Positions 41,226 through 52,031 of a stretch of 64,000 nucleotides of DNA are shown here, piece after piece. The position numbers and the translations under genes were made by a program. The first letter of the stretch is position 1. The number at the start of each line of letters is the position of its first letter. Source of the DNA: an uncultured Chloroflexia bacterium (GTDB taxonomy: Bacteria; Chloroflexota; Limnocylindria; Limnocylindrales; CSP1-4); contig CAWIQP010000005.1 of the NCBI GenBank assembly GCA_963838285.1, forward strand, positions 2,075-66,074. The letters are read 5' to 3'. Under the pieces are notes generated by a model. The model saw only the letters and a list, made by a program, of their open reading frames with translations. It was not told the origin of the DNA and did not search any database.

Positions 41226-41376
41226 GGGCCGGAAGTCCCGTGCCGGATGGACGCAAGCACGTGCGAATCGCCCATGGACTAGGTCCCATGACCGGTTGTC
41301 GCCTGTCAACGCCCGGTCCGGCCGGTGTGCGCGGTCACCGTCCGAAGGGACCTGGGGTCATTGGGCCCATCGGCCG
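41226..41376. promoter_or_regulatory. Cluster of DosR-like palindromic boxes upstream of pta-ackA
   Basis: GGGCCGGAAGTCCC (41226), ATGGACTAGGTCCCAT (41274), GGGACCTGGGGTCA (41347), GGGCCCATCGGCCG (41363). Confidence 0.45.
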
Positions 41377-41550
41377 AGGCTTCCGGCGCGCCGGTCGAAA
41401 AGGTGCGGTCCGGGTGGTTTCGGGTGCCTTGCGAGTGGCCTAACAGCCACTCGGAGCCCGCGGCGGCATGAAATCGCCGCCTCGACGGTCCTGGGTGCCA
41501 TGACCGCCGTACCATTGCCCGCTCCCCCCTGCCGTCCCATCCTCCCCTAC

Positions 41551-43507
41551 ATGACGGGCGTTACTGTCCGGCGCTTCACCGGACTCCGTACCAGAATTGC
41601 CACGGCGTCGGGACTGGCTCTGCTTGTCCTGGTGCTCGCCGCGGCTTCCGCCGCGGGTGCCGTGACTGGCAGTCTCACCAATCCCTCCGTTTCGCCGAAC
41701 CCGGCGGTCGTCGGTGGCACAGTCACGTTCCAGGTGACCTACACGGACCCCGCGGGCGTAGCGCCGTACCGAGTCCGGGTCTACAGCGGCGACACGCGGC
41801 TGGTCACCTTCGCGCTGCCCGGGTCCGGCGACTGGGCCGGCGGCGTGACGCTCACGGCCACCACCTCGAGTCTGGCCGCCGGCTCGTATCCGATCGTCTT
41901 CCGTGCGTGGCAGGGAGATGCCAGCCATACCCAGCTTCCCGACCTCGCCGGTGGCACGCTGGTGGTCAACCCGGCTTCCAGCCCGAGCCCGAGTCACTCG
42001 GCCACCCCCAGCCCGACTCCGACCCACTCGCCCACGCCGACTCCGACTCCCACTCCGACTCCGACACCGACCGTGGAACCGACGCCGACGCCGGCTCCGG
42101 TCGCGACACCCGTCCCGACTCCGGCTCCGACCAGGGCCCCAACCCCCAAACCCACTCTCAAGCCCACGCCGAAGCCCACGCCTACGCCGGTGCCGGTGGC
42201 GGCCGCGACGACGGCACCGACGGCGGCCCCAGTCGTCACCGCAGCGCCGACCCACAACCCGACATCCGTCCCCACGTCGGGGAGCGGCAGTAGCTCGTCG
42301 CCGCGCGCCTCGCAGTCGACAAACGCGAACGGCCCGGTGGTGGCAGGAGGAGCGGGCTCCTCCGGCGGCGACCAGGCCGCGTCGACGCCCGGACCGGCCG
42401 GATCCCCCACCGGCGCGGGCCCGCTCTCCGATCCTTCGGTCAAGCACGGCGGCTCGGCCGCCTTCATAGGTCGCTTGACCAGCTACGTCGTCCCCGGCGT
42501 CTCCGGCGGAAGGGTGCCCGACAGCGTGCCGGCAGACCCGTTCGGCGGCCGGGACGAATCGCCCGCGGAGTTGTTCGTCGCGATGGCGCCGTCCGTAGCC
42601 ACCGGCGCCGCCGGAACCATGGCGTGGGCCGCTTTCGCGTTCTTCGGCAAGCGGCGCCGCGATGACGGCGACGAGCCGGAGGACCAGGCTCTCGCATGGG
42701 CGGCCGCGAGCAGCTACGAAGTCCAGGCCGCGCCGGGGCTCAGGGTGGTGGACGAGTCGATGCTGCCGCGCTGGCGCAGACCGTCGCTGCAACAGGTCCG
42801 CCGCAACGACCCGCTTCGCGCCGTCGCGGAAGAGCCGCGTCTTTCATTCGAGTCCGCCGGCGTTAGGCCGCTCGACAACTACGAACGCCGCCGCATCGGC
42901 TACCGGCTGGTTCGCCTCCTCGACTCGCCCGACGAGCTCCGGTCGCGGGAGATCGGCATCCTCGACAAGGGCGACGAGGTCCAGCTGCTGCAGAGCCATC
43001 AGGCGTTCTGGCTGGTCTTGTGCCCGGACGGCCGGCAGGGATGGGTTCATCGAATGACCCTGGCCGATCCTGCGAACGAGGCGCGGGGCGAGCCGGAGCC
43101 CGAACCGATGCCGCAGTACATGGACGACGACGACCCGCCCGAGGCCGTCGAATACCCGGTCGAGCCGGCCACCGACGGGCTGCTCGAGGCCTACATGAAG
43201 GCTCGCAGCGACATGCTGCGAACGATGGCCGCAGGCGGCGCCCGCCACGGCCGCTCCCGACGTGCCGAGCGCCCGCACGCCCCAGTCCGTCGCAGCCGAG
43301 GCGCCCGCCACGGCCGCCACGTCCACCGTTCCCGAGGTCGAGGTTCCCGTTACTTCGCCGCCGGCCGAGGAGACCGCTTCCGGCGGTGTTCCCGCCGCAG
43401 TACCAGCACGTGCTGGTGAGCGATATTCGGGACGAAAGAATGCGGGTACCCGTAAGGCCGCAAGCGCGTCCCGGCCTGGTACCAGATCACGTCGCCCTTC
43501 GCGGTGA
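41551..43507 (+). CDS. Exported protein: beta domain, PT-rich linker, TM, cytoplasmic SH3-like domain (probable frameshift near 43240)
   Basis: Signal peptide, (PT)n tract, AWAAFAFFGKRRR anchor, GDEVQLL...FWLVLCPDGRQGWVH; 3' end is 43419 or 43507. Confidence 0.75.
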
Positions 43508-44282
43508 AGCCGGCGCGGGTCGCCCGATCCGCGAGGTCCGAACCCGTGAAGATGTATCGCCCGTCCTGGTAGGCGTCCCGAACGATCACCGCCGCGTAGC
43601 GGTTCGGTCGCAGGACGCGCAGCAGCTCGGCAAACACGACCCCCATCCTGTCGAGGAAGGTGGCGTAGTCGGCACTGTTGGCCAGGTCGCCGGCATGCTC
43701 GGTGACCATGGCGTAGTCGGTCCGCCGGTTGGCGTGCTCCTCCGCCAGCTTGCCGCCCGACATCGTGATCGGCAGCTGGATGTTGTAGGGCGGGTCGGTG
43801 GCCACGAAGTCCACGCTGTCGGACTCGATCTCGGGCAGCAGGACCAGCGAGTCGCCCAGGCGCATCTCCAGCCCGGACGCGTCGAATCCACGCTCGCCGC
43901 CCGGATCTGATGGGCCGATGTCCGCCAGCAGCGGGCCGCGACCGTCGCGCTCGGTCGCCAGGTCGGCCACGAGCCGGCGGTAGATCTCGACCCAGCGCGG
44001 CTCGATCTCCAGGCCCAGGGCGCGTCTGGGGCCGCGAGCGACGGCCGCGCCGAGCAGCGTTCCGCCGACGCCCGCGAACGGATCGAGAACCAGTTCGCCC
44101 GTCACGGTGAAGAACTCGATCAGCCGCGCCATCAGCCTGGGCGGTTTGTTGGCGCCGTGCTGCTTCCGAATCGAGTGCCCGAGCTCGGACGGATAGGCCG
44201 TTCCCCACACGGACTTGGTGAAGTACAGCCACTCCTCGCCGGAGAGTTCGTTGAGTGTGTTGTCCGGGTGTCTGGGGCTCAC
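43350..44282 (-). CDS. Orphan N4/N6 DNA methyltransferase, permuted motif order
   Basis: HGANKP (motif X), VLDPFAGVGGT (I), then TDPPY (IV), LRVLRP; no REase nearby. Confidence 0.85.
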   Translation of the reverse strand: MSPRHPDNTLNELSGEEWLYFTKSVWGTAYPSELGHSIRKQHGANKPPRLMARLIEFFTVTGELVLDPFAGVGGTLLGAAVARGPRRALGLEIEPRWVEIYRRLVADLATERDGRGPLLADIGPSDPGGERGFDASGLEMRLGDSLVLLPEIESDSVDFVATDPPYNIQLPITMSGGKLAEEHANRRTDYAMVTEHAGDLANSADYATFLDRMGVVFAELLRVLRPNRYAAVIVRDAYQDGRYIFTGSDLADRATRAGFTAKGDVIWYQAGTRLRPYGYPHSFVPNIAHQHVLVLRREHRRKRSPRPAAK

Positions 44283-44533
44283 CCGTTGAGCTTAGCCGCG
44301 GCGATCTCCCGGCGACACCCGGGCGCGACGCCCCGGCGATCCCGGCACCACCCGGGCTCGTGGCGCCGACCCGGCACGGCGCGCCCGGCGAATCGCCGGC
44401 TCCCCGCTCTGACCGGCAGCCGGCACTGGTACGAAATGGCTGCCCGCTCCGGCGCGCCAGCGGGTTACCCTTTGTCCGATTGAGGGGCAACGAGGCGTCG
44501 CGCTGGGCGGCGCCGGCTCTGGGACCTCGACAC

Positions 44534-47500
44534 ATGATCACGACAAGCCACGACCGAAGCGGCCCCGACCGCAGCTTCGAAGGACACGCGCCGCGCCGGC
44601 CGCTCTGGAGCGACAGGTTCGTCGGGCGCGAGCGCGACCTCGAGCGCGTGGCCCTGGGGCTTCAGAGGGCCGTGGACGGCAGGCCCAACGCGCTCGTCCT
44701 GTCGGGGACGGCGGGCCTCGGTCTGAGCCGGCTCCTCGCCGAGACGCGGCGCCGGATCGGGGCGCTGGCGGAGCCGTTCGCGGCCGTGCACGGCGTGGCG
44801 CTGCCGGCCACGTCGGGCGTTCCCTACGCGCCCGTGGCCGCCGCCCTGGAGCATCTTCTCGCGCCGCTGCCCGACGAGACGTTCGCGGCCCTGATCGGAC
44901 CCACGGGCGACGCGATCGCGCGGCTGGTGCCGGGTCTCGCCCCGCGCCTCGAAGAGCTGGAGCTGCTGCCCGACAGGCCGCGGATCGCCGCCACCGAGTG
45001 GCGTGAGGCGCGCATGTTCGAGGCCGTCCTGGGGCTGCTGGAGCGGCTCGGCGAGCGCCAGCCCGTCGCCCTTCTGCTCGAAGACCTGCACCACGCCGAC
45101 GCCGCGACCCGCGGCCTGGTCACGTTCCTGGCTCGCGTGACGCGGGGTCAGCGGGTCATGCTCATCGCCACCTACCAGCCCGACCGGCTGCTGCGGTTCG
45201 ACCCGTTGCGGGCGACCCTGGCCACACTGGCCTCCTCGCCCTCGGTCACGAGCCACGAGCTGCCTCCGCTGGAGCGAGCCGAGCTCGCCCAGCTGATCGA
45301 GGCGATCGAAGGCGGTCGGCCGTCCTCGACGACCCTCCTTCTGGTCGCCGAACGCTCACGCGGCAACCCCCTGATCGCCGAGGAGCTGCTGGCCGCGCGG
45401 AGGGAGCTGCAGGGGGTGTCCCTGGCCGGCACGTTCGATCGGCTGGTCACCGCGCGCGCGGCGCTGCGCTCTCCGGAGTGCCGGCGCGTGCTGCGGCTCC
45501 TGTCGATGGCCGGGTCGATGGTCACGCTTCCGACGCTGCTGTCGATGGCGGCGGAGTTCGAGGCCAGATCTCCGGCCCGGCCGCCCCGCTCCGCCTCGGG
45601 AGCGCGCCATGGCGACGTCCTCGAATCGGACATCGCCGCGGGCGTCGCCGAGGCGCTGGAGCATCAGTTCCTCATCGAGTCGTTCGACGGGCCCCGTGGA
45701 GCGCGCCTCGAGCCCGCCAGCGACGAACGCTATCGCCGGCCGTCCCGCGACAGGCTGACCCGGCCCGAGGCCGGCCGCGAGGATGGCAGCGAGTTCGGTC
45801 GGGAAGGGCACGGCGGTCCGCAGCCGCGCGCCTCGGAAGCCGCCGGCCGCGCCTCCGGCGAACGGCTGATCGGTTTCCGACACGAACTGATCGCCGAGGC
45901 CATCGCCACCGACCTGCTGCCGGCGACGCGCCGCCGCTATCACGCGGCCCTGGCGGCGGCCCGGCGCGCGGAACCGGATCCGCAGCCCGCCGCCGCGTTG
46001 AAGCACTACCTGGCGGCTCACGAGCTGACGGAGGCGGAGACCGCGGCTCTCGACGCGGCAACCGCGGCCGAGGGTCTGGATGCCGGGGCCGACGCGCTGG
46101 CCCACTACGAGTGCGCGCTCAGCCTGTACGAGATCGTTCGTCCGGACGAGACCGTGGCACGTCTTTCGGATCTGTACCTCCGGGCCGCGGAAGCGGCCTT
46201 CGCCGCCGGCGACCCCGCCCGAGCGGCCGCCTATGCGGAGGCGGCGGCCGCCGCGCTCGACGATCCTCACGAGCGGCTCGCGCTCGGCCTGGTCATGGAT
46301 CAACTCGGTCGTTACCGGCGCGCGTCCGGAGACCACGAGGGATCGCTGACCGCATATCGCCGGGCCGTGGAACTCGTCCCGCCCGAACCGACGCCGGCCC
46401 GAGCGCGGGTGCTCGCTTCGCTCGCGCAGTTCCGCATGCTTGAGGGCGTCTTCTCCGAGGCGAAGCGATATGCGCAGGAGGCCGTCGAGGTGGCGGCCGC
46501 CGTCGGAGACGAGGCTCGCCGGGAGGCGCTCCACGCGACCTGCACCCTGGCCGTTGCCGACGCGTGGGGCGAAGATCCCGAGCCCGCCGTCTGGATGCTG
46601 CGCAAGACACGCGATCAGGCGGCGGAGTTCGGCAGCCTGGACGACCTCTTCCGCGTGTACGCGAACCTGACCACCGTTCTCGATCTGCTCGGCCGTCGCG
46701 ACGAAGGCATCGCCATCGCCTACGAAGGCATCGCCGAGGCCGAACGCGCCGGCCAGGCGACGGTCTACGGCAACTTCCTGCGGGCCAACGCCGCCGACTC
46801 GCTGTACTTCCTTGGCCGCTGGCCGGAGTGCCGCCGGCTCTGCCTGGACGCTCTGAGCTGGAACCCGGTGGGCATCTGGTTCCTCCCGCCGCTCCTTGCC
46901 CTGGCGACGCTCGAGGTGGCCATGGGCGCCGGCGAGACGGCCGGCCGTCTCCTGGGCCAGGTCCTGCTGGCCATCGAAACCGTCCAGGACCCGCAGTTCT
47001 CCGTGCCCGCTCAGCAGGCCGCGGCCGAGTACGCGCTCTGGCAGGAGGATCTGGTCGACGCCCACAAGGCCGCGGATCGCGGCTGGCTGCGTGTGAGCGA
47101 CACCGAGGACTGGCTGCTCATGGCCCGGATGGCGGCCACTTTCCTGGAGGTCGATGCCGCCGTCGCCCAGGATGCCCACCGGCGGCGGGACTTCGCCGCC
47201 CTGGCGGCGGCGCGGGAGCGGAGTCTCCCGGTCGTGCTCCGGGCCGAGGCCGTGGTTCGCGCCTGCGGCGTCTCGCCGAAGACGGGCTCGCGGCGGCAGG
47301 CCGATCTCGCCGTCAGGACGGCCCGCGCGTTCCGGGCCCGCGTCGAGGGCCGCGACGACCCGACGACATGGCAACAGCTCGCCCTGGACTGGGCCGATCT
47401 CGGCGACCCGTACCAGGCGGCGCGGGCGAACTGGCGCCAGGCGGAGGCGCTGCTCGATCAGGCCAGGGGCCGATCCACTCGAACCGTCGCCCGCGAGCCT

Positions 47501-48010
47501 CTTACGGCGGCGGCCGAGGCGGCGTTCAAGCTCGGAGCCATGCCGCTTCTGCGGGCCGTGGCCGAACTATCCCAGCGGGCGATGCTTCCGCTCCCCAGGC
47601 CGATAGAGGCGGCGCTCGAGGGCCGGATGGAACCGGCGGCGCCCCTGGCCAGACCTGCCGGACGTGGGGCCGCGCCGTTGCGGCCGGCGGCAGAGTTCGG
47701 GCTGTCGGAGGGCAGGGGGACCGGCAGGGCGGCCGCATCGGGTGCCCGGTCCGAGGTCCGCCTCGTGGCCGACTTCGTGTCCCCATCGAGTCAACCGCCT
47801 CAGCACGACTTCGGTCTGAGCAAGCGCGAGCTGGAAGTGCTGGGCCTCATCGCCGAGGGCCGCAGCAATCCCGAGATCGGCCGGCGCCTCTTCATCACGC
47901 GCAAGACCGTGGCCGTCCACGTCAGCAACATCCTGACGAAGATGGGGGTCTCCGGCCGCGTCGAGGCCGCGGCGGCGGCCATCCGTCTCGGCATGACCGA
48001 CCGCGAGTAG
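44534..48010 (+). CDS. Large AAA/STAND-TPR-LuxR transcriptional regulator
   Basis: FVGRERDL, degenerate P-loop GTAGLGLS, LLLEDLHHAD, GNPL, FRHELI, helical repeats, C-terminal LSKRELEVL...TVAVHVSNILTKMG. Confidence 0.92.
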   Translation: MITTSHDRSGPDRSFEGHAPRRPLWSDRFVGRERDLERVALGLQRAVDGRPNALVLSGTAGLGLSRLLAETRRRIGALAEPFAAVHGVALPATSGVPYAPVAAALEHLLAPLPDETFAALIGPTGDAIARLVPGLAPRLEELELLPDRPRIAATEWREARMFEAVLGLLERLGERQPVALLLEDLHHADAATRGLVTFLARVTRGQRVMLIATYQPDRLLRFDPLRATLATLASSPSVTSHELPPLERAELAQLIEAIEGGRPSSTTLLLVAERSRGNPLIAEELLAARRELQGVSLAGTFDRLVTARAALRSPECRRVLRLLSMAGSMVTLPTLLSMAAEFEARSPARPPRSASGARHGDVLESDIAAGVAEALEHQFLIESFDGPRGARLEPASDERYRRPSRDRLTRPEAGREDGSEFGREGHGGPQPRASEAAGRASGERLIGFRHELIAEAIATDLLPATRRRYHAALAAARRAEPDPQPAAALKHYLAAHELTEAETAALDAATAAEGLDAGADALAHYECALSLYEIVRPDETVARLSDLYLRAAEAAFAAGDPARAAAYAEAAAAALDDPHERLALGLVMDQLGRYRRASGDHEGSLTAYRRAVELVPPEPTPARARVLASLAQFRMLEGVFSEAKRYAQEAVEVAAAVGDEARREALHATCTLAVADAWGEDPEPAVWMLRKTRDQAAEFGSLDDLFRVYANLTTVLDLLGRRDEGIAIAYEGIAEAERAGQATVYGNFLRANAADSLYFLGRWPECRRLCLDALSWNPVGIWFLPPLLALATLEVAMGAGETAGRLLGQVLLAIETVQDPQFSVPAQQAAAEYALWQEDLVDAHKAADRGWLRVSDTEDWLLMARMAATFLEVDAAVAQDAHRRRDFAALAAARERSLPVVLRAEAVVRACGVSPKTGSRRQADLAVRTARAFRARVEGRDDPTTWQQLALDWADLGDPYQAARANWRQAEALLDQARGRSTRTVAREPLTAAAEAAFKLGAMPLLRAVAELSQRAMLPLPRPIEAALEGRMEPAAPLARPAGRGAAPLRPAAEFGLSEGRGTGRAAASGARSEVRLVADFVSPSSQPPQHDFGLSKRELEVLGLIAEGRSNPEIGRRLFITRKTVAVHVSNILTKMGVSGRVEAAAAAIRLGMTDRE

Positions 48011-48046
48011 GGCGAGCTCGATCCGGCGCGCGACGTTCCCCGGATA

Positions 48047-48080
48047 CGAAGAAACCCGGACCTGCGAGTCCGGGTTTCTA
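48047..48080. terminator. Terminator hairpin between convergent genes
   Basis: AGAAACCCGGAC-CTGCGA-GTCCGGGTTTCT. Confidence 0.8.
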
Positions 48081-48094
48081 TCGACGGGTCCGGT

Positions 48095-48163
48095 CTACCA
48101 GCGCTTGCCCAGGATGATCACGACAACCGCCAGGAGGATCGGAGCCAGGGCGTTGAGTACCAC
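48095..48163 (-). CDS. 22-aa hydrophobic small peptide MVLNALAPILLAVVVIILGKRW
   Basis: AAGGAG RBS 6 nt before GTG; own promoter upstream and terminator downstream; below the ORF-track size cutoff. Confidence 0.7.
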   Translation of the reverse strand: MVLNALAPILLAVVVIILGKRW

Positions 48164-48224
48164 TGTCGACTCCTTGCTCTCCACCACCCCGAATACCGGC
48201 GCGTAGCCCGCGTGCGGCGGTGCC

Positions 48225-48281
48225 AACGTAACCCGGGGCCGCAGCCACACTCAATCGCCCATGGGTACCGGGGGACCCCAT
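48225..48281 (-). promoter_or_regulatory. Promoter of the small peptide gene with upstream palindrome
   Basis: -35 TTGAGT (48254-48249), 18-bp spacer, -10 TACGTT (48230-48225); ATGGGTACCGGGGGACCCCAT at 48261-48281. Confidence 0.55.
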
Positions 48282-48357
48282 CACTTTTGGCGCCCGCCGC
48301 GCGCCGCCCGCAGCCAGCCGCCCGGTCGCCGTGGGCCCGGCCCGACGATCGCGGAGT

Positions 48358-51300
48358 TCAGTGGGCGATCTTGCGGGTCATGGCGGCGGCCACGGCCCCG
48401 AGCAGCCCCTCCGACGTGAACGGCTTGGCCAGGAAATCGATGTCCGGCTCGAGGACGCCGTCGTGGACGATGCCCTTTTCGGTGTGGCCGGACATGTACA
48501 GGACGTGGATGCCGGGTTGGATCGCGACGATCTTCGTAGCCACTTCGCGCCCGCTGAGGCCGGGCATGACCATGTCGGTCACGAGCAACTCCAGGGGCCC
48601 GGAGCGAGCCGTTTCGATGGCCGCGGTGCCGTCCGGCGCGGTCAGCACTCGATAGCCTGCCCTCTCCAGGACGCGAGTTGCGAATCGCCTCACGCCGATG
48701 TCGTCCTCGACGAGCAGAATCGTTCCGGTCCGGTCGCCGCCCGACGTGTCCGCGGGAAGCGGCTCCGCGAGATCCTCGACCGTCTCCTCGACCCGGGGCA
48801 GGAAGACCGTGAATGTCGATCCGCGGCCGGGCTCGCTGCGTGCCGTGACGGTCCCCCCGGAAGCCCGGACGATGCCCCAGACCTGGGCCAGCCCCAGGCC
48901 GGTGCCTTTGTCCGGTCCCTTGGTCGTGAAGAAGGGCTCGAACAGGTGGCCGAGCGTCTCGGCGGTCATGCCGATCCCGGTGTCGCTGACCGAAAGGCTG
49001 GTCATCGGACCGGCCGGCCCTGTCGCCGCGAGCGCCACGTCGGTCGTTGCGCCCTCCACGTCTGCGATCTCGATCGTCAGCGTGCCTCCCTCGGGCATCG
49101 CCTCACGGGCATTCACCGCCAGATTGACGATGACCTGCACGATCTGGCCGGGGTCGGCCAGAACCGAGCCCGTGCCGGCCGGGGCGACGGTCACGAGCGT
49201 CACGTCCTCGCCGATGAGTCGCCCGAGCAGCGGTTCCAGGTTGCGAACGATCGAGGCCAGGTTCACGACCTCCGGCTTGAGGACCGTGCGCCGCGCGAAG
49301 GCCAGCAGCTGGCGGGTCAGGGAAGCCGCCCGGTCCGCGGCCTGCTGGATCTGCTCCAGATCCTCGCGCGGCCCGACGCCGGGCGGAAGCTCGATCAGGG
49401 CGAGGTCGGCGTTGCCCCGGATCGCGGTCAGCAGATTGTTGAAGTCGTGCGCGATGCCGCCGGCGAGCCGGCCGATCTCCTCCATCTTCTGGGCCTGGCG
49501 CAGCTGTTCCTCAAGTACCAGACGCTCGGCCTCGGCCTGCTTCCGCTCCGTGAGATCGCGGGCCACGGACAGCACGGCCGGGCCACCGTTCAGGTTGATC
49601 AGCGTCGCGTTGATCTCGACCGGGAAGGCCGTTCCGTCCTTCCGCAGGTGAGTCGTTTCGATGAGCCCCACGCCCTCGGTCAAGAGCGTCCCGGTGCGCT
49701 CGGGCAGTTGAGCCTCGTAGCCGCTGCCGTCGATGTCGGCCGCCGTCATCGTCAGGAGTTCGTCGTGGCTGTAGCCGAGCCGCTCACATGCGGTGCGGTT
49801 GACTTCCACGAAACTGCCGTCGAGGTTGCTGATGAAGATGGCGTCGCTGGCGAAGTCGAAGAGGGTCTGGAGCAGCTGTGCCGACTGGCGCAGGGCCTGC
49901 TCCGCCTCGTGACGCTCCGTAATGTCCTGGCTCGCGGTGACCGTTCCCGTGATCTCTCCGTCCGCCGATCGCAGGGGAGCCTTGGTTACGATGACGCGTC
50001 GCACCGTCCCGTCTGCGAGGTACCTGTCCGCCTCGTAGATCTCGGGCAGCCCGGTCTCCATGGCCCGGCGATCGTGAGCGGTGTGGACGTCGGCTTCGGG
50101 CTGGCCGAGCTCACGGTTCGTCCTGCCGACGACCTCATCCCGAGTCCGGCCGTAGGTGTCGTGAGCGTACGCGTCGTTGCACTGCGTCACCCGACCGTCC
50201 CTGTCCTTGGCGACGATGGGTGTTGGCGTCGCGTTCAGGAATTCCTGGACGAAGCGAGTCTTTTCGTCGAGGACGCGCTCGGCCTGTTTGCGCTCCGATA
50301 TGTCGCGGTAGACGGAGAGAATTGCCGGCCGGCCGCGGAACTCGATGCGGCGGGAGACGGCCTCGATCGGTATCTCGGTCCCATCTCGCCGGACGTGCGT
50401 GACCTCGATGGGGCGGACCTCGCCGTACCGCATGACCCGTTCGACCCTCCCCGGAATCGTTGCCGCCGACTCGGGGGAGTTGATGGCGCTCACCGGCATC
50501 CCCACCAGTTCGTCACGGGCGTAGCCGAGGCGTTCGCAGAGGACGCGGTTGACCTCAAGGTAGTGGCCGCCGGGCTCCGAGATCGCGACGCCGTCACCCA
50601 TGCTGTCGAAGATGTCGCGGAACTGTCGCTCCGACCGGCCTATGGCCTCGTCCATCTCGTGTTGGGCCGTGACATCGAGAACCGAGGCGACGACGCCCAC
50701 GATCTCGCCGCGGGCGTTCCGATGTGGGCGGTTGGTCTGGACGACCCACCCGCGCCTGCCGGTGCTGGGAATCACGTACTCGAACTCCCGAGAGGGAGGC
50801 TGCTCGCCGGCCAGGGCCAGCTTCAGGTCCTCGCCGACGCCTGTAGCCATGACCTCCGGGAAGAGCGCGTCGGCCTTCCCGCCCAGGACCTCGCCGGCGG
50901 ACATCCCAGTCAGCTGCTCCATGCCCGGGTTCCAGACGGCATATCGGAGGTCGCGGTCGTAGACGATCAGCCCTTCGCCGGCACTGGCGATGACGGTCTC
51001 CACGAAGGCGTTCCGCTCGCTCAGGGCGGCTTCGGCCCGCCGCGCCTCGGTGATGTCCTCGATCACGGCCATGACCCAGGTCGGGCCCACGCGCGAGAGG
51101 CTGATGCGCACGTATCTGTCGGTCGCCGGATCGCGTCCTTCGAACGCTTCGGGCTCTCCGCCCACCGCGACCCGGCCCATTCGATCGAGCAGCTCCAGCT
51201 TCAGATCGGGCCTGAGCTCCGACGCCCGCTTGCCTATGGCTTCCTCGGCCTTCGTGCCGGTCAACGCCTCGAAGGCCGGATTCGCGTCGATCAGGCGGTA

Positions 51301-51804
51301 GTCGACCGGCTTGCCGGTCTCGTCGACGATCGTCTCGCCCACGACGACGGCATTCGACATTCGTTTGAAGAGCAGCCGATGAATGTTCGAGAGGGTGTCC
51401 CCGGCGCCTTCGTCCGGGTCGTCTTGGACCTCTCTCACGAGCGCGACCAGACCTATGCCATCGCCCGTGGGCACCGTCGAAAGATCGTGCTCGAGCGTCC
51501 GGACGTCACCGTCGCTGCGCCGGAATCGGAACCTGGGGTGGGGCAGGTGCTCCGGGAGGCGGCCGGACGCCAGAATCGTCTCGACCGTGGCCTTCACCCG
51601 TCGCCTGATGGCGTCGGAATTCCGACCGGGAGGAGCCAGGCGGCCGCAGATCTCCCATACCGGCTGCCCCACCATCTCGGAGGCCGTATGTCCGGTCAGC
51701 TCCTCCGCCTGGGGGCTCCAGGCCGTTACGATCCCGTGCTCGTCGGTGACGACGGCAGCCGGCGGCTTCGATCGCTTCGATTCGGGCCGCCCCGCGTCTA
51801 CCAC
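48358..51804 (-). CDS. Multi-PAS hybrid histidine kinase with receiver domain
   Basis: About six PAS repeats, QAQKMEEIGRLAGGIAHDFNNLL, NAREAM, FEPFFTTK, GTGLGL, ILLVEDD...TDMVMP. Confidence 0.95.
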   Translation of the reverse strand: MVDAGRPESKRSKPPAAVVTDEHGIVTAWSPQAEELTGHTASEMVGQPVWEICGRLAPPGRNSDAIRRRVKATVETILASGRLPEHLPHPRFRFRRSDGDVRTLEHDLSTVPTGDGIGLVALVREVQDDPDEGAGDTLSNIHRLLFKRMSNAVVVGETIVDETGKPVDYRLIDANPAFEALTGTKAEEAIGKRASELRPDLKLELLDRMGRVAVGGEPEAFEGRDPATDRYVRISLSRVGPTWVMAVIEDITEARRAEAALSERNAFVETVIASAGEGLIVYDRDLRYAVWNPGMEQLTGMSAGEVLGGKADALFPEVMATGVGEDLKLALAGEQPPSREFEYVIPSTGRRGWVVQTNRPHRNARGEIVGVVASVLDVTAQHEMDEAIGRSERQFRDIFDSMGDGVAISEPGGHYLEVNRVLCERLGYARDELVGMPVSAINSPESAATIPGRVERVMRYGEVRPIEVTHVRRDGTEIPIEAVSRRIEFRGRPAILSVYRDISERKQAERVLDEKTRFVQEFLNATPTPIVAKDRDGRVTQCNDAYAHDTYGRTRDEVVGRTNRELGQPEADVHTAHDRRAMETGLPEIYEADRYLADGTVRRVIVTKAPLRSADGEITGTVTASQDITERHEAEQALRQSAQLLQTLFDFASDAIFISNLDGSFVEVNRTACERLGYSHDELLTMTAADIDGSGYEAQLPERTGTLLTEGVGLIETTHLRKDGTAFPVEINATLINLNGGPAVLSVARDLTERKQAEAERLVLEEQLRQAQKMEEIGRLAGGIAHDFNNLLTAIRGNADLALIELPPGVGPREDLEQIQQAADRAASLTRQLLAFARRTVLKPEVVNLASIVRNLEPLLGRLIGEDVTLVTVAPAGTGSVLADPGQIVQVIVNLAVNAREAMPEGGTLTIEIADVEGATTDVALAATGPAGPMTSLSVSDTGIGMTAETLGHLFEPFFTTKGPDKGTGLGLAQVWGIVRASGGTVTARSEPGRGSTFTVFLPRVEETVEDLAEPLPADTSGGDRTGTILLVEDDIGVRRFATRVLERAGYRVLTAPDGTAAIETARSGPLELLVTDMVMPGLSGREVATKIVAIQPGIHVLYMSGHTEKGIVHDGVLEPDIDFLAKPFTSEGLLGAVAAAMTRKIAH

Positions 51805-52031
51805 GCTTGCCCTTCCCTCTCCGTTCGGCGGGCGCCGATGCTTTGCTGCCCTCACCCGACGCGGGATCCGGGCCACCGGCGATCCTGGAGCACAACCAGG
51901 TACCACCCGGCATCGGTCGACAGGCGGGACCATCTTCCCACCGTGGCGCAGCCGAGTCCATGCGGCGTTCGCATGAGCGGCGCCGGGCCGCACCACTCCG
52001 CGAATTGCCCGCGCGTCCGGGGGCGCGGTCG

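Follow-up and report, generated by a model that had tools for sequence, protein, structure and literature searches.

A micro-protein gene with a conserved G-[K/R]-R-W end is paired with a core LAL/MalT-type STAND regulator in uncultured Limnocylindria (Chloroflexota)

LAL/MalT-type activators are proteins of about 1150 aa with an N-terminal AAA_16 NTPase, a long helical-repeat sensor and a C-terminal helix-turn-helix (HTH) of the GerE/LuxR type. RRNPP systems (Rap, Rgg, NprR, PlcR, PrgX and AimR; Bacillota) are defined, in the available text of PMC10075063 and PMC9765709, by a receptor with tetratricopeptide repeats (TPR) and an adjacent small propeptide, the last 4–10 residues of which are the signal. 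In Streptomyces, the small gene afsS has a box that overlaps the −35 of its promoter, to which the regulator AfsR (DNA-binding domain, NOD and TPR) binds, recruiting RNA polymerase (available text of PMC10936776). No described STAND/LAL regulator with a cognate peptide was found in the open-access literature, searched over a narrow range of topics. The present analysis concerns a small open reading frame (sORF) and a LAL/MalT-type STAND regulator gene, convergent and tail-to-tail on the minus and the plus strand (the latter at 44534..48010), in a stretch of 64,000 nt of contig CAWIQP010000005.1, hereafter the window. The assembly holding it (GCA_963838285.1; 3.1 Mb, 69% G+C, 13 contigs) is a metagenome-assembled genome (MAG) of an uncultured Limnocylindria (Chloroflexota), and the relatives carrying both genes are uncultured peat and soil Chloroflexota.

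The comparisons carried out show that the sORF is a real micro-protein gene, translated as far as its sequence can tell, with its own promoter, a strong ribosome-binding site and a terminator. Together with the regulator, which is a core single-copy gene, it was shown to form a conserved tail-to-tail pair in the CSP1-4-like family, with selection on its reading frame, on the hydrophobicity of its body and, strictly, on its C-terminal G-[K/R]-R-W. These comparisons define a new family of micro-proteins whose signature is four residues long and which, in much of the CSP1-4-like family, is linked to a core LAL-type regulator. The first-pass annotation had described an sORF with a Shine-Dalgarno sequence, −35 and −10 elements and a terminator shared with the convergent regulator, and all of these can be read in the window:

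44534..48010, plus strand: LAL/MalT-type STAND regulator, 1158 aa, with P-loop NTPase (AAA_16), TPR-like helical-repeat sensor and GerE/LuxR HTH.
48163..48095, minus strand: sORF of 22 sense codons plus TAG, with hydrophobic body and C-terminal G-K-R-W, read directly.
48163..48161, minus strand: sORF start codon GTG, read directly.
48097..48095, minus strand: sORF stop codon TAG, read directly.
48175..48170, minus strand: Shine-Dalgarno sequence AAGGAG, 6 nt before the GTG.
48254..48249, minus strand: −35 element TTGAGT, within an invariant 8-nt block (13 of 13 loci chosen without reference to the −35).
48230..48225, minus strand: −10 element TACGTT, TAnnnT in relatives.
48218..48195, minus strand: inferred transcript 5' end, deduced from the −10, and small hairpin in the minimum free energy fold.
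48079..48050, both strands: bidirectional intrinsic terminator hairpin of 12 bp, with an A-run on one side and a T-run on the other, common to the sORF and the regulator gene.

The −35 and −10 elements of the sORF are separated by a spacer of 18 nt and followed by a leader of about 55 nt, the first 24 nt of which are able to form the small hairpin. Across 17 aligned sequences this hairpin was paired in 74% of cells, with four of eight pairs changed on both sides. The terminator hairpin, located 39 nt past the regulator stop and starting about 17 nt after the sORF stop, was paired in 99% of cells of the same alignment, with compensatory changes at two pairs; the GGAG core of the Shine-Dalgarno sequence and the next T were invariant, and AAGGAG nearly so. 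Thirteen loci, selected on nothing but the final codons of the ORF, were aligned, and complete or nearly complete invariance was seen at the −35 block, at the Shine-Dalgarno block, at the last five codons, at the 6 nt after the stop and at the hairpin. A simple consensus scanner, with criteria stricter than this promoter and T-run, called 0 promoters and 0 terminators, and both elements therefore rest on conservation. RNAalifold also paired the Shine-Dalgarno core (48172..48167) with codons 6–8, Leu-Ala-Pro (about 48142..48137, minus strand); both sides of this predicted pairing are invariant and thus show no covariation, and the partner is absent in shortened versions of the sORF.

Matches to a 261-nt query were obtained for 19 of the 24 genus relatives and for 0 of the 16 sister-family genomes. 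The regulator protein, searched against a collection of species-representative genomes, retrieved 46 loci with 66–90% identity, 43 of them with downstream DNA. A convergent sORF passed a strict filter at 38 of these 43 loci, 54–153 nt from the regulator stop. Four of the five misses were recovered by inspection, three with a weaker ribosome-binding site and one (L068) 1.3 kb further on, so that the sORF is present at 42 of 43 loci; at the remaining locus (L061) it is absent and pntB abuts the regulator gene. Lack of conservation in relatives had been named beforehand as a reason to abandon the proposal, and the sORF, its ribosome-binding site and its synteny with the regulator are conserved at these close loci and in at least eight other genera. 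A search for further copies in its own genome, likewise proposed by the first-pass annotation, returned the sORF as a single copy, the remaining pattern matches being inside long coding frames. Across the order, a strict DNA pattern of the last codons was present in 11 of 301 genomes, nearly all of the own genus; this pattern is too stringent to trace the family, and two extra matches (L017, L028) were inside long ORFs. The regulator frame is interrupted part-way in four MAG records (L043, L047, L055, L068), although it is aligned over its full length by tblastn, and the interruptions are more likely to be assembly indels than signs of a pseudogene.

On sequence grounds the sORF is translated and is not a pure RNA element, because its indels are in frame, the codons of its motif change synonymously, T is biased to the second codon position and the ribosome-binding site is invariant. 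Indels of 3, 3, 12 and 39 nt were found, all in frame, and no out-of-frame copy was seen among the 43 loci. The codons of the motif were tallied over 54 distinct DNA versions. Gly is encoded by GGC (41), GGT (8), GGG (2) and GGA (1), two versions having Trp instead; the second position by AAG (36), AAA (1), CGC (6), CGA (2), CGG (3) and AGG (4), with one Thr and one Trp; Arg by CGC (49), CGT (2), CGG (2) and AGG (1). Trp is present in 54 of 54 versions and may be followed by 0–2 residues (extra residues in 19 of 54); the stop codon is TAG (42), TAA (8) or TGA (4). The bodies of 15 distinct 22-codon versions differ by 935 non-synonymous vs 246 synonymous codon differences, and T occupies the second position in 65% of codons 6–18 vs 20% and 9% in the other frames, a pattern by which the hydrophobicity of the body is kept and its sequence is free to change.

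The length of the sORF in relatives ranges from 5 to 35 codons, and is 40 codons in an unpublished genome (G245). In long versions, a basic N-end is followed by a hydrophobic core, by small residues and finally by the motif. The 18-codon version has an in-frame internal deletion by which the basic N-end of the long type is kept and the hydrophobic core is gone; the 9-codon version (two genomes) is an in-frame internal deletion of a longer form; in the 5-codon version, also an in-frame internal deletion, the start codon is directly joined to the four motif codons. All three retain promoter, ribosome-binding site and terminator. A 16-codon amphipathic version is present in the most divergent lineage. 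Because four lineages shorten the body (to 18, 16, 9 and 5 codons) and keep the motif, the constrained part is, as judged from these versions, the C-terminal tetrapeptide G-[K/R]-R-W and not a membrane helix. What is selected is thus a start codon, any or no hydrophobic body and G-[K/R]-R-W, which is unfit for a purely membrane-spanning protein. The description as a membrane peptide, given in the first-pass annotation, holds for the hydrophobic body of the 21–35-codon forms, but it is weakened by the four short versions, which keep only the motif. The peptide had no match in Pfam or NCBIfam; Rfam at a permissive threshold gave three chance-level matches in 47000–49500, none at the sORF; and the ESM Atlas, queried with a 33-aa relative, gave a best score of 0.82, below the meaningful level.

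The regulator, announced as a protein of about 1150 aa, is of 1158 aa from the ATG at 44534, with an N-terminal P-loop NTPase (PF13191, AAA_16, E 1.9e-18) and a C-terminal HTH (PF00196, GerE, E 1.1e-18). Sequence matches in the PDB were to the HTH only (HTH domains of GerE, NarL, DosR and VraR), and no Pfam TPR match was obtained. An AlphaFold2 model of an orthologue (L049), based on 24 aligned sequences and with a mean predicted local distance difference test (pLDDT) of 61, shows paired helices at about 503–1020, with pLDDT 70–94 over most of this region, the NTPase and the linkers being uncertain. The top Foldseek matches of the helical region were the TPR domain of LGN/Pins and designed CTPR (E 1e-5 to 1e-6), which are TPR proteins binding extended peptides. 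The TPR-type sensor suggested at first sight was therefore borne out in the predicted model and by Foldseek, and STAND-TPR-LuxR is a fair description of a protein that has the sequence features of LAL/MalT-type activators. The locus differs from those of such activators in that no small-molecule pathway genes adjoin it and its conserved partner is a micro-ORF, and in that it is a core single-copy gene of a whole family of Chloroflexota.

A search for the C-terminal half of the regulator, extended beyond the genus, gave a single-copy match in 85 of the 91 genomes and 37 of the 39 genera of the family (38–83% identity). At 8 of 25 other-genus loci, one of them (L080) from an unpublished genome, a convergent sORF of 32–40 codons with the same motif lies less than 250 nt from the regulator stop, and in two genomes of one genus a convergent sORF, the promoter of which also has GTAC sites, is found at a distance of 3.2 and 3.8 kb downstream. 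In the window, a hybrid PAS-rich histidine kinase and then pntAB are upstream of the sORF on the minus strand, and a DNA methylase and then pta-ackA are on the far side of the regulator. In other genera the kinase and pntB are no longer neighbours and the methylase beyond the regulator is still there; the far-side flanking gene varies while the sORF remains with the regulator.

The reading favoured here, tentatively and at a confidence short of calling it probable, is that regulator and peptide form a co-regulated pair and that the sensor has the peptide as its ligand or cofactor. It draws on the promoters of both genes, in which the following elements were located:

44429..44440, plus strand: 12-nt GTAC-core box of the regulator promoter, 37 nt upstream of the −10, conserved across 27 upstream regions.
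44466..44471, plus strand: regulator −10 of the TAnnnT type, with the hexamer TAC[CG]CT in 27 of 27 upstream regions.
48257..48268, minus strand: promoter-proximal GTAC-core box of the sORF promoter, 38 nt upstream of the −10, counterpart of 44429–44440.
48261..48281, no strand assigned: palindrome of the first-pass annotation, imperfect, with 7 of 9 arm positions complementary.

No sigma-70-like −35 was found at the expected place of the regulator promoter in the alignment of 27 upstream regions. GTAC is present at the place of the proximal box in 29 of 34 distinct sORF promoters. In relatives, GTAC-core sites upstream of the sORF −35 are located 38 nt before the −10, then about 9–10 nt up and then about 30 nt beyond, followed by a further conserved block beyond the third site; in the window the distal sites are degenerate, and the distal arm of the palindrome occupies the place of the second site. 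MalT-dependent promoters likewise have several short repeated sites upstream of the −35. The palindrome proposed upstream of the −35 is thus present, but with two mismatched arm positions, and relatives keep it only as the promoter-proximal GTAC arm. Control of the sORF by the regulator, also proposed, fits the shared promoter box, although the conserved sites are short GTAC cores and not a palindrome. The consensus of the box in 34 sORF promoters and that in 27 regulator promoters agree at 11 of 12 positions, and when a matrix was made from the sORF boxes alone, its best match fell at the place of the regulator box in 15 of the 27 upstream regions of the regulator. The best scores of this matrix had a mean of 8.56 vs 3.2 ± 1.5 for 500 column-shuffled matrices, 7 of which scored as high, but the sequences are related and not independent and the significance is overstated, which counts against the link. 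A shared box linking both promoters within the genus is suggestive at this level. The 8-nt invariant −35 block of the sORF promoter also recurs in the 5' leader of the regulator (44476–44483, plus strand), both in the window and in a single relative; in others, a G-rich block related to it stands there.

In the favoured reading, both genes would be driven, within the genus, through one shared 12-nt GTAC-core box that immediately precedes the −35 position, and a common factor, most simply the regulator itself, would activate the regulator gene together with the sORF. Additional GTAC sites further up in the sORF promoter might be used for cooperative binding, as in oligomeric STAND activators. 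The conserved C-terminal end of the peptide could then be the ligand or cofactor of the TPR-like sensor, the weakest step, which would close a feedback loop of the RRNPP peptide-receptor kind. The 31–35-codon forms look like export propeptides, and the shortened forms of the genus would act inside the cell. For the versions of 5 and 9 residues, a role as ligand is more fitting than one as effector. In its most specific form, which is rated as rather unlikely, the STAND/LAL factor senses the peptide encoded beside it, with the C-terminal 4–6 residues as ligand, and the complex activates both genes. It is equally doubtful, though conceivable, that such a circuit would amount to an RRNPP-like system with a MalT-like ATPase as its switch, and in Chloroflexota, a phylum other than the Bacillota from which these systems were described. 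A transition in steps within the genus, with an exported propeptide at one end and a 5-residue product confined to the cell at the other, is a suggestion offered with similarly low confidence. As a whole, the circuit proposed in the first-pass annotation is plausible and partly supported.

The comparison with RRNPP systems gives a mixed result. The locus shares with them a TPR-type regulator beside a small ORF with a strong ribosome-binding site and, in the long forms, a basic N-end, a hydrophobic core and conserved C-terminal 4–6 residues, the usual site of the mature signal. It differs in belonging to Chloroflexota, in a candidate mature end that is undiversified and in the many forms without an export-type N-end. 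Membership was judged by five criteria in the available text of PMC10075063. There, propeptides are of 10–100 aa, and those found here are mostly of 21–35 aa, with 5 and 9 aa, below the range, in two lineages; adjacency is from −60 to 400 bp, and the distance here is 54–153 nt at 38 loci, with exceptions of 1.3 kb and 3.2–3.8 kb. The receptor has TPRs, which are present here in the predicted structure only, and measures 250–500 aa, in contrast to the 1100–1250 aa, with a STAND NTPase and a LuxR HTH, of this regulator. The propeptide is exported, by a Sec signal or in the PptAB manner; here the long forms have the corresponding layout of basic end, hydrophobic stretch and C-end, and the shorter forms deviate from it at the N-end or in the core. 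The pair agrees with three of the five criteria and, by this analogy, may work like such a system without being a member.

Several further data weigh against the favoured reading. The 21–23-aa versions have an acidic or neutral N-end, and those of 5–18 aa are without hydrophobic core, the 5- and 9-codon ones being unable to be Sec substrates. RRNPP signalling peptides usually diversify and the motif of the sORF is invariant across genera; such constancy would be less expected of a secreted signal than of an effector or of a cofactor inside the cell. No sORF was found within 0.5–1.4 kb at 15 of 25 other-genus regulator loci, and for 3 of 5 genomes a whole-genome search with an sORF profile produced no convincing match; either the regulator is apparently able to do without the sORF, or the sORF has diverged past detection. 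Synteny is generally high in the family, the methylase on the other side of the regulator being also conserved. In the window itself the box of the sORF promoter matches less well (score 13.5), and the shared box is weak in the long-peptide subgroup. A profile hidden Markov model of the whole promoter matched only itself in the own genome, and scans with the box matrix gave no non-coding enrichment (24 of 62 matches vs a 40% background, coding regions being crudely masked) and a single site (score 13.4) whose distance to a TAnnnT hexamer was as expected; the lack of a further promoter of this build in the genome fits a closed loop and equally fits a meaningless box. Finally, seven genomes of five other genera have regulator promoters of a different build: a TAGAAT −10 lies beside the ATG, which suggests a leaderless regulator mRNA in those genera. 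The genus of the window has a leader of about 55 nt.

As an alternative, the regulator may switch on the sORF, and the micro-protein act as an effector on another conserved cellular target, following the logic of AfsR to afsS; this was considered possible but not likely. The shared promoter box and the tight linkage would be expected here as well, and the motif invariant across genera suits a conserved intracellular target better than a diversifying signal. There is a precedent in the action of AfsR on the small gene afsS: as described in the available text of PMC10936776, AfsR is a STAND regulator with NOD and TPR and the small gene carries its box at the −35. At the present locus a conserved candidate box abuts the sORF −35 and is common to the regulator promoter. 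The likeness ends at the DNA-binding domain, which is of the SARP/OmpR type in AfsR and GerE here, and at the peptide, which has no similarity to AfsS (about 63 aa) or to any Pfam or NCBIfam family. An effector of only 5 or 9 residues is also hard to picture.

Less probable than these is that the sORF is an independent neighbour in stable synteny, encoding a single-pass membrane protein (N-out, with the basic C-end inside) the short copies of which are decaying. The 21–35-codon forms, with their hydrophobic body and basic/Trp end, suit such a protein, and small membrane regulators and toxins such as MgrB and Fst/Ldr are similar to them in length, hydrophobicity and basic/aromatic end. The methylase on the other side of the regulator is likewise syntenic across genera, and the 15 of 25 other-genus loci where the sORF was not found would be in agreement with this reading. 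Decay, however, is difficult to reconcile with shortened copies that keep promoter, ribosome-binding site, start, frame, motif and terminator, or with the lack of any frameshifted copy at 43 loci. In contrast to small membrane regulators and type I toxins, only the tetrapeptide end is strict here, and the short forms have no hydrophobic body. Mere neighbourhood also leaves aside that the sORF stays with the regulator when the far-side flanking gene changes, and that both genes have a promoter box in common.

A cis-acting role was considered improbable. In this explanation, translation of G-K/R-R-W would stall or time the ribosome near the terminator and set the read-through antisense to the regulator, or the product would be a small RNA of about 175 nt. 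Within the genus, the last codons and the 6 nt after the stop are strongly conserved as nucleotides, the hairpin starts about 17 nt after the stop, and the Shine-Dalgarno sequence is predicted to pair with codons 6–8, all of which would suit such an element. Across genera, however, the codons of the motif vary synonymously, 0–2 extra codons come after Trp (19 of 54 versions) and in one genus the sORF is 3.2–3.8 kb from the regulator; Rfam gave no match, and covariation is present only at the terminator and the small 5' hairpin.

A type I toxin like Fst/Ldr, with an antisense RNA as its antitoxin, is an alternative of the first-pass annotation, and the short hydrophobic peptide with its basic/Trp tail bears a resemblance to such toxins. 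These have an antisense RNA gene that overlaps or adjoins them and often occur in several copies. The alternative is very improbable for a single-copy sORF in a core chromosomal position conserved genus-wide and beyond, which retains forms of 5–18 codons and faces no antisense promoter or gene that was noticed, the opposite strand holding only the terminator and the end of the regulator. A leader-like sORF, the other alternative raised at that stage, is unlikely in its classical form: a leader peptide or attenuator requires an sORF upstream of the controlled gene on the same strand, and here a terminator and then the convergent 3' end follow, with no same-strand gene after.

Other observations were made in the neighbourhood. 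The hybrid histidine kinase (48358–51996, minus strand), directly 5' of the sORF, combines about six PAS domains with HisKA, HATPase and a receiver; only some of the genus relatives have it, with pntB or other DNA in its place elsewhere. The DNA methylase (N6_N4_Mtase; 43350–44282, minus strand) is divergent from the regulator gene, and its N-terminal part is still 80–93% identical at other-genus loci where the identity of the regulator is as low as about 50%; it seems to be a strongly conserved methylase, probably an orphan, with a fixed place beside the regulator. Between pta and the methylase, about 2 kb (41296–43350) contain long ORFs on both strands, without Pfam match.

Micro-proteins of fewer than 30 codons are invisible to standard gene callers, and Limnocylindria are an abundant uncultured lineage of peat, soil and freshwater in which gene regulation is almost undescribed. 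The sORF family, defined by a four-residue end and locked to one core regulator, offers a clean and testable case. If the peptide is the output of the regulator, the pair would parallel AfsR–AfsS and would point to a small effector with a conserved cellular target. If it is the ligand, peptide-sensing TPR regulators would extend to STAND ATPases and to a phylum where none has been described, and orphan LAL/MalT-like regulators, the inducers of which are mostly unknown, would gain a candidate class of ligands that can be found beside the gene.

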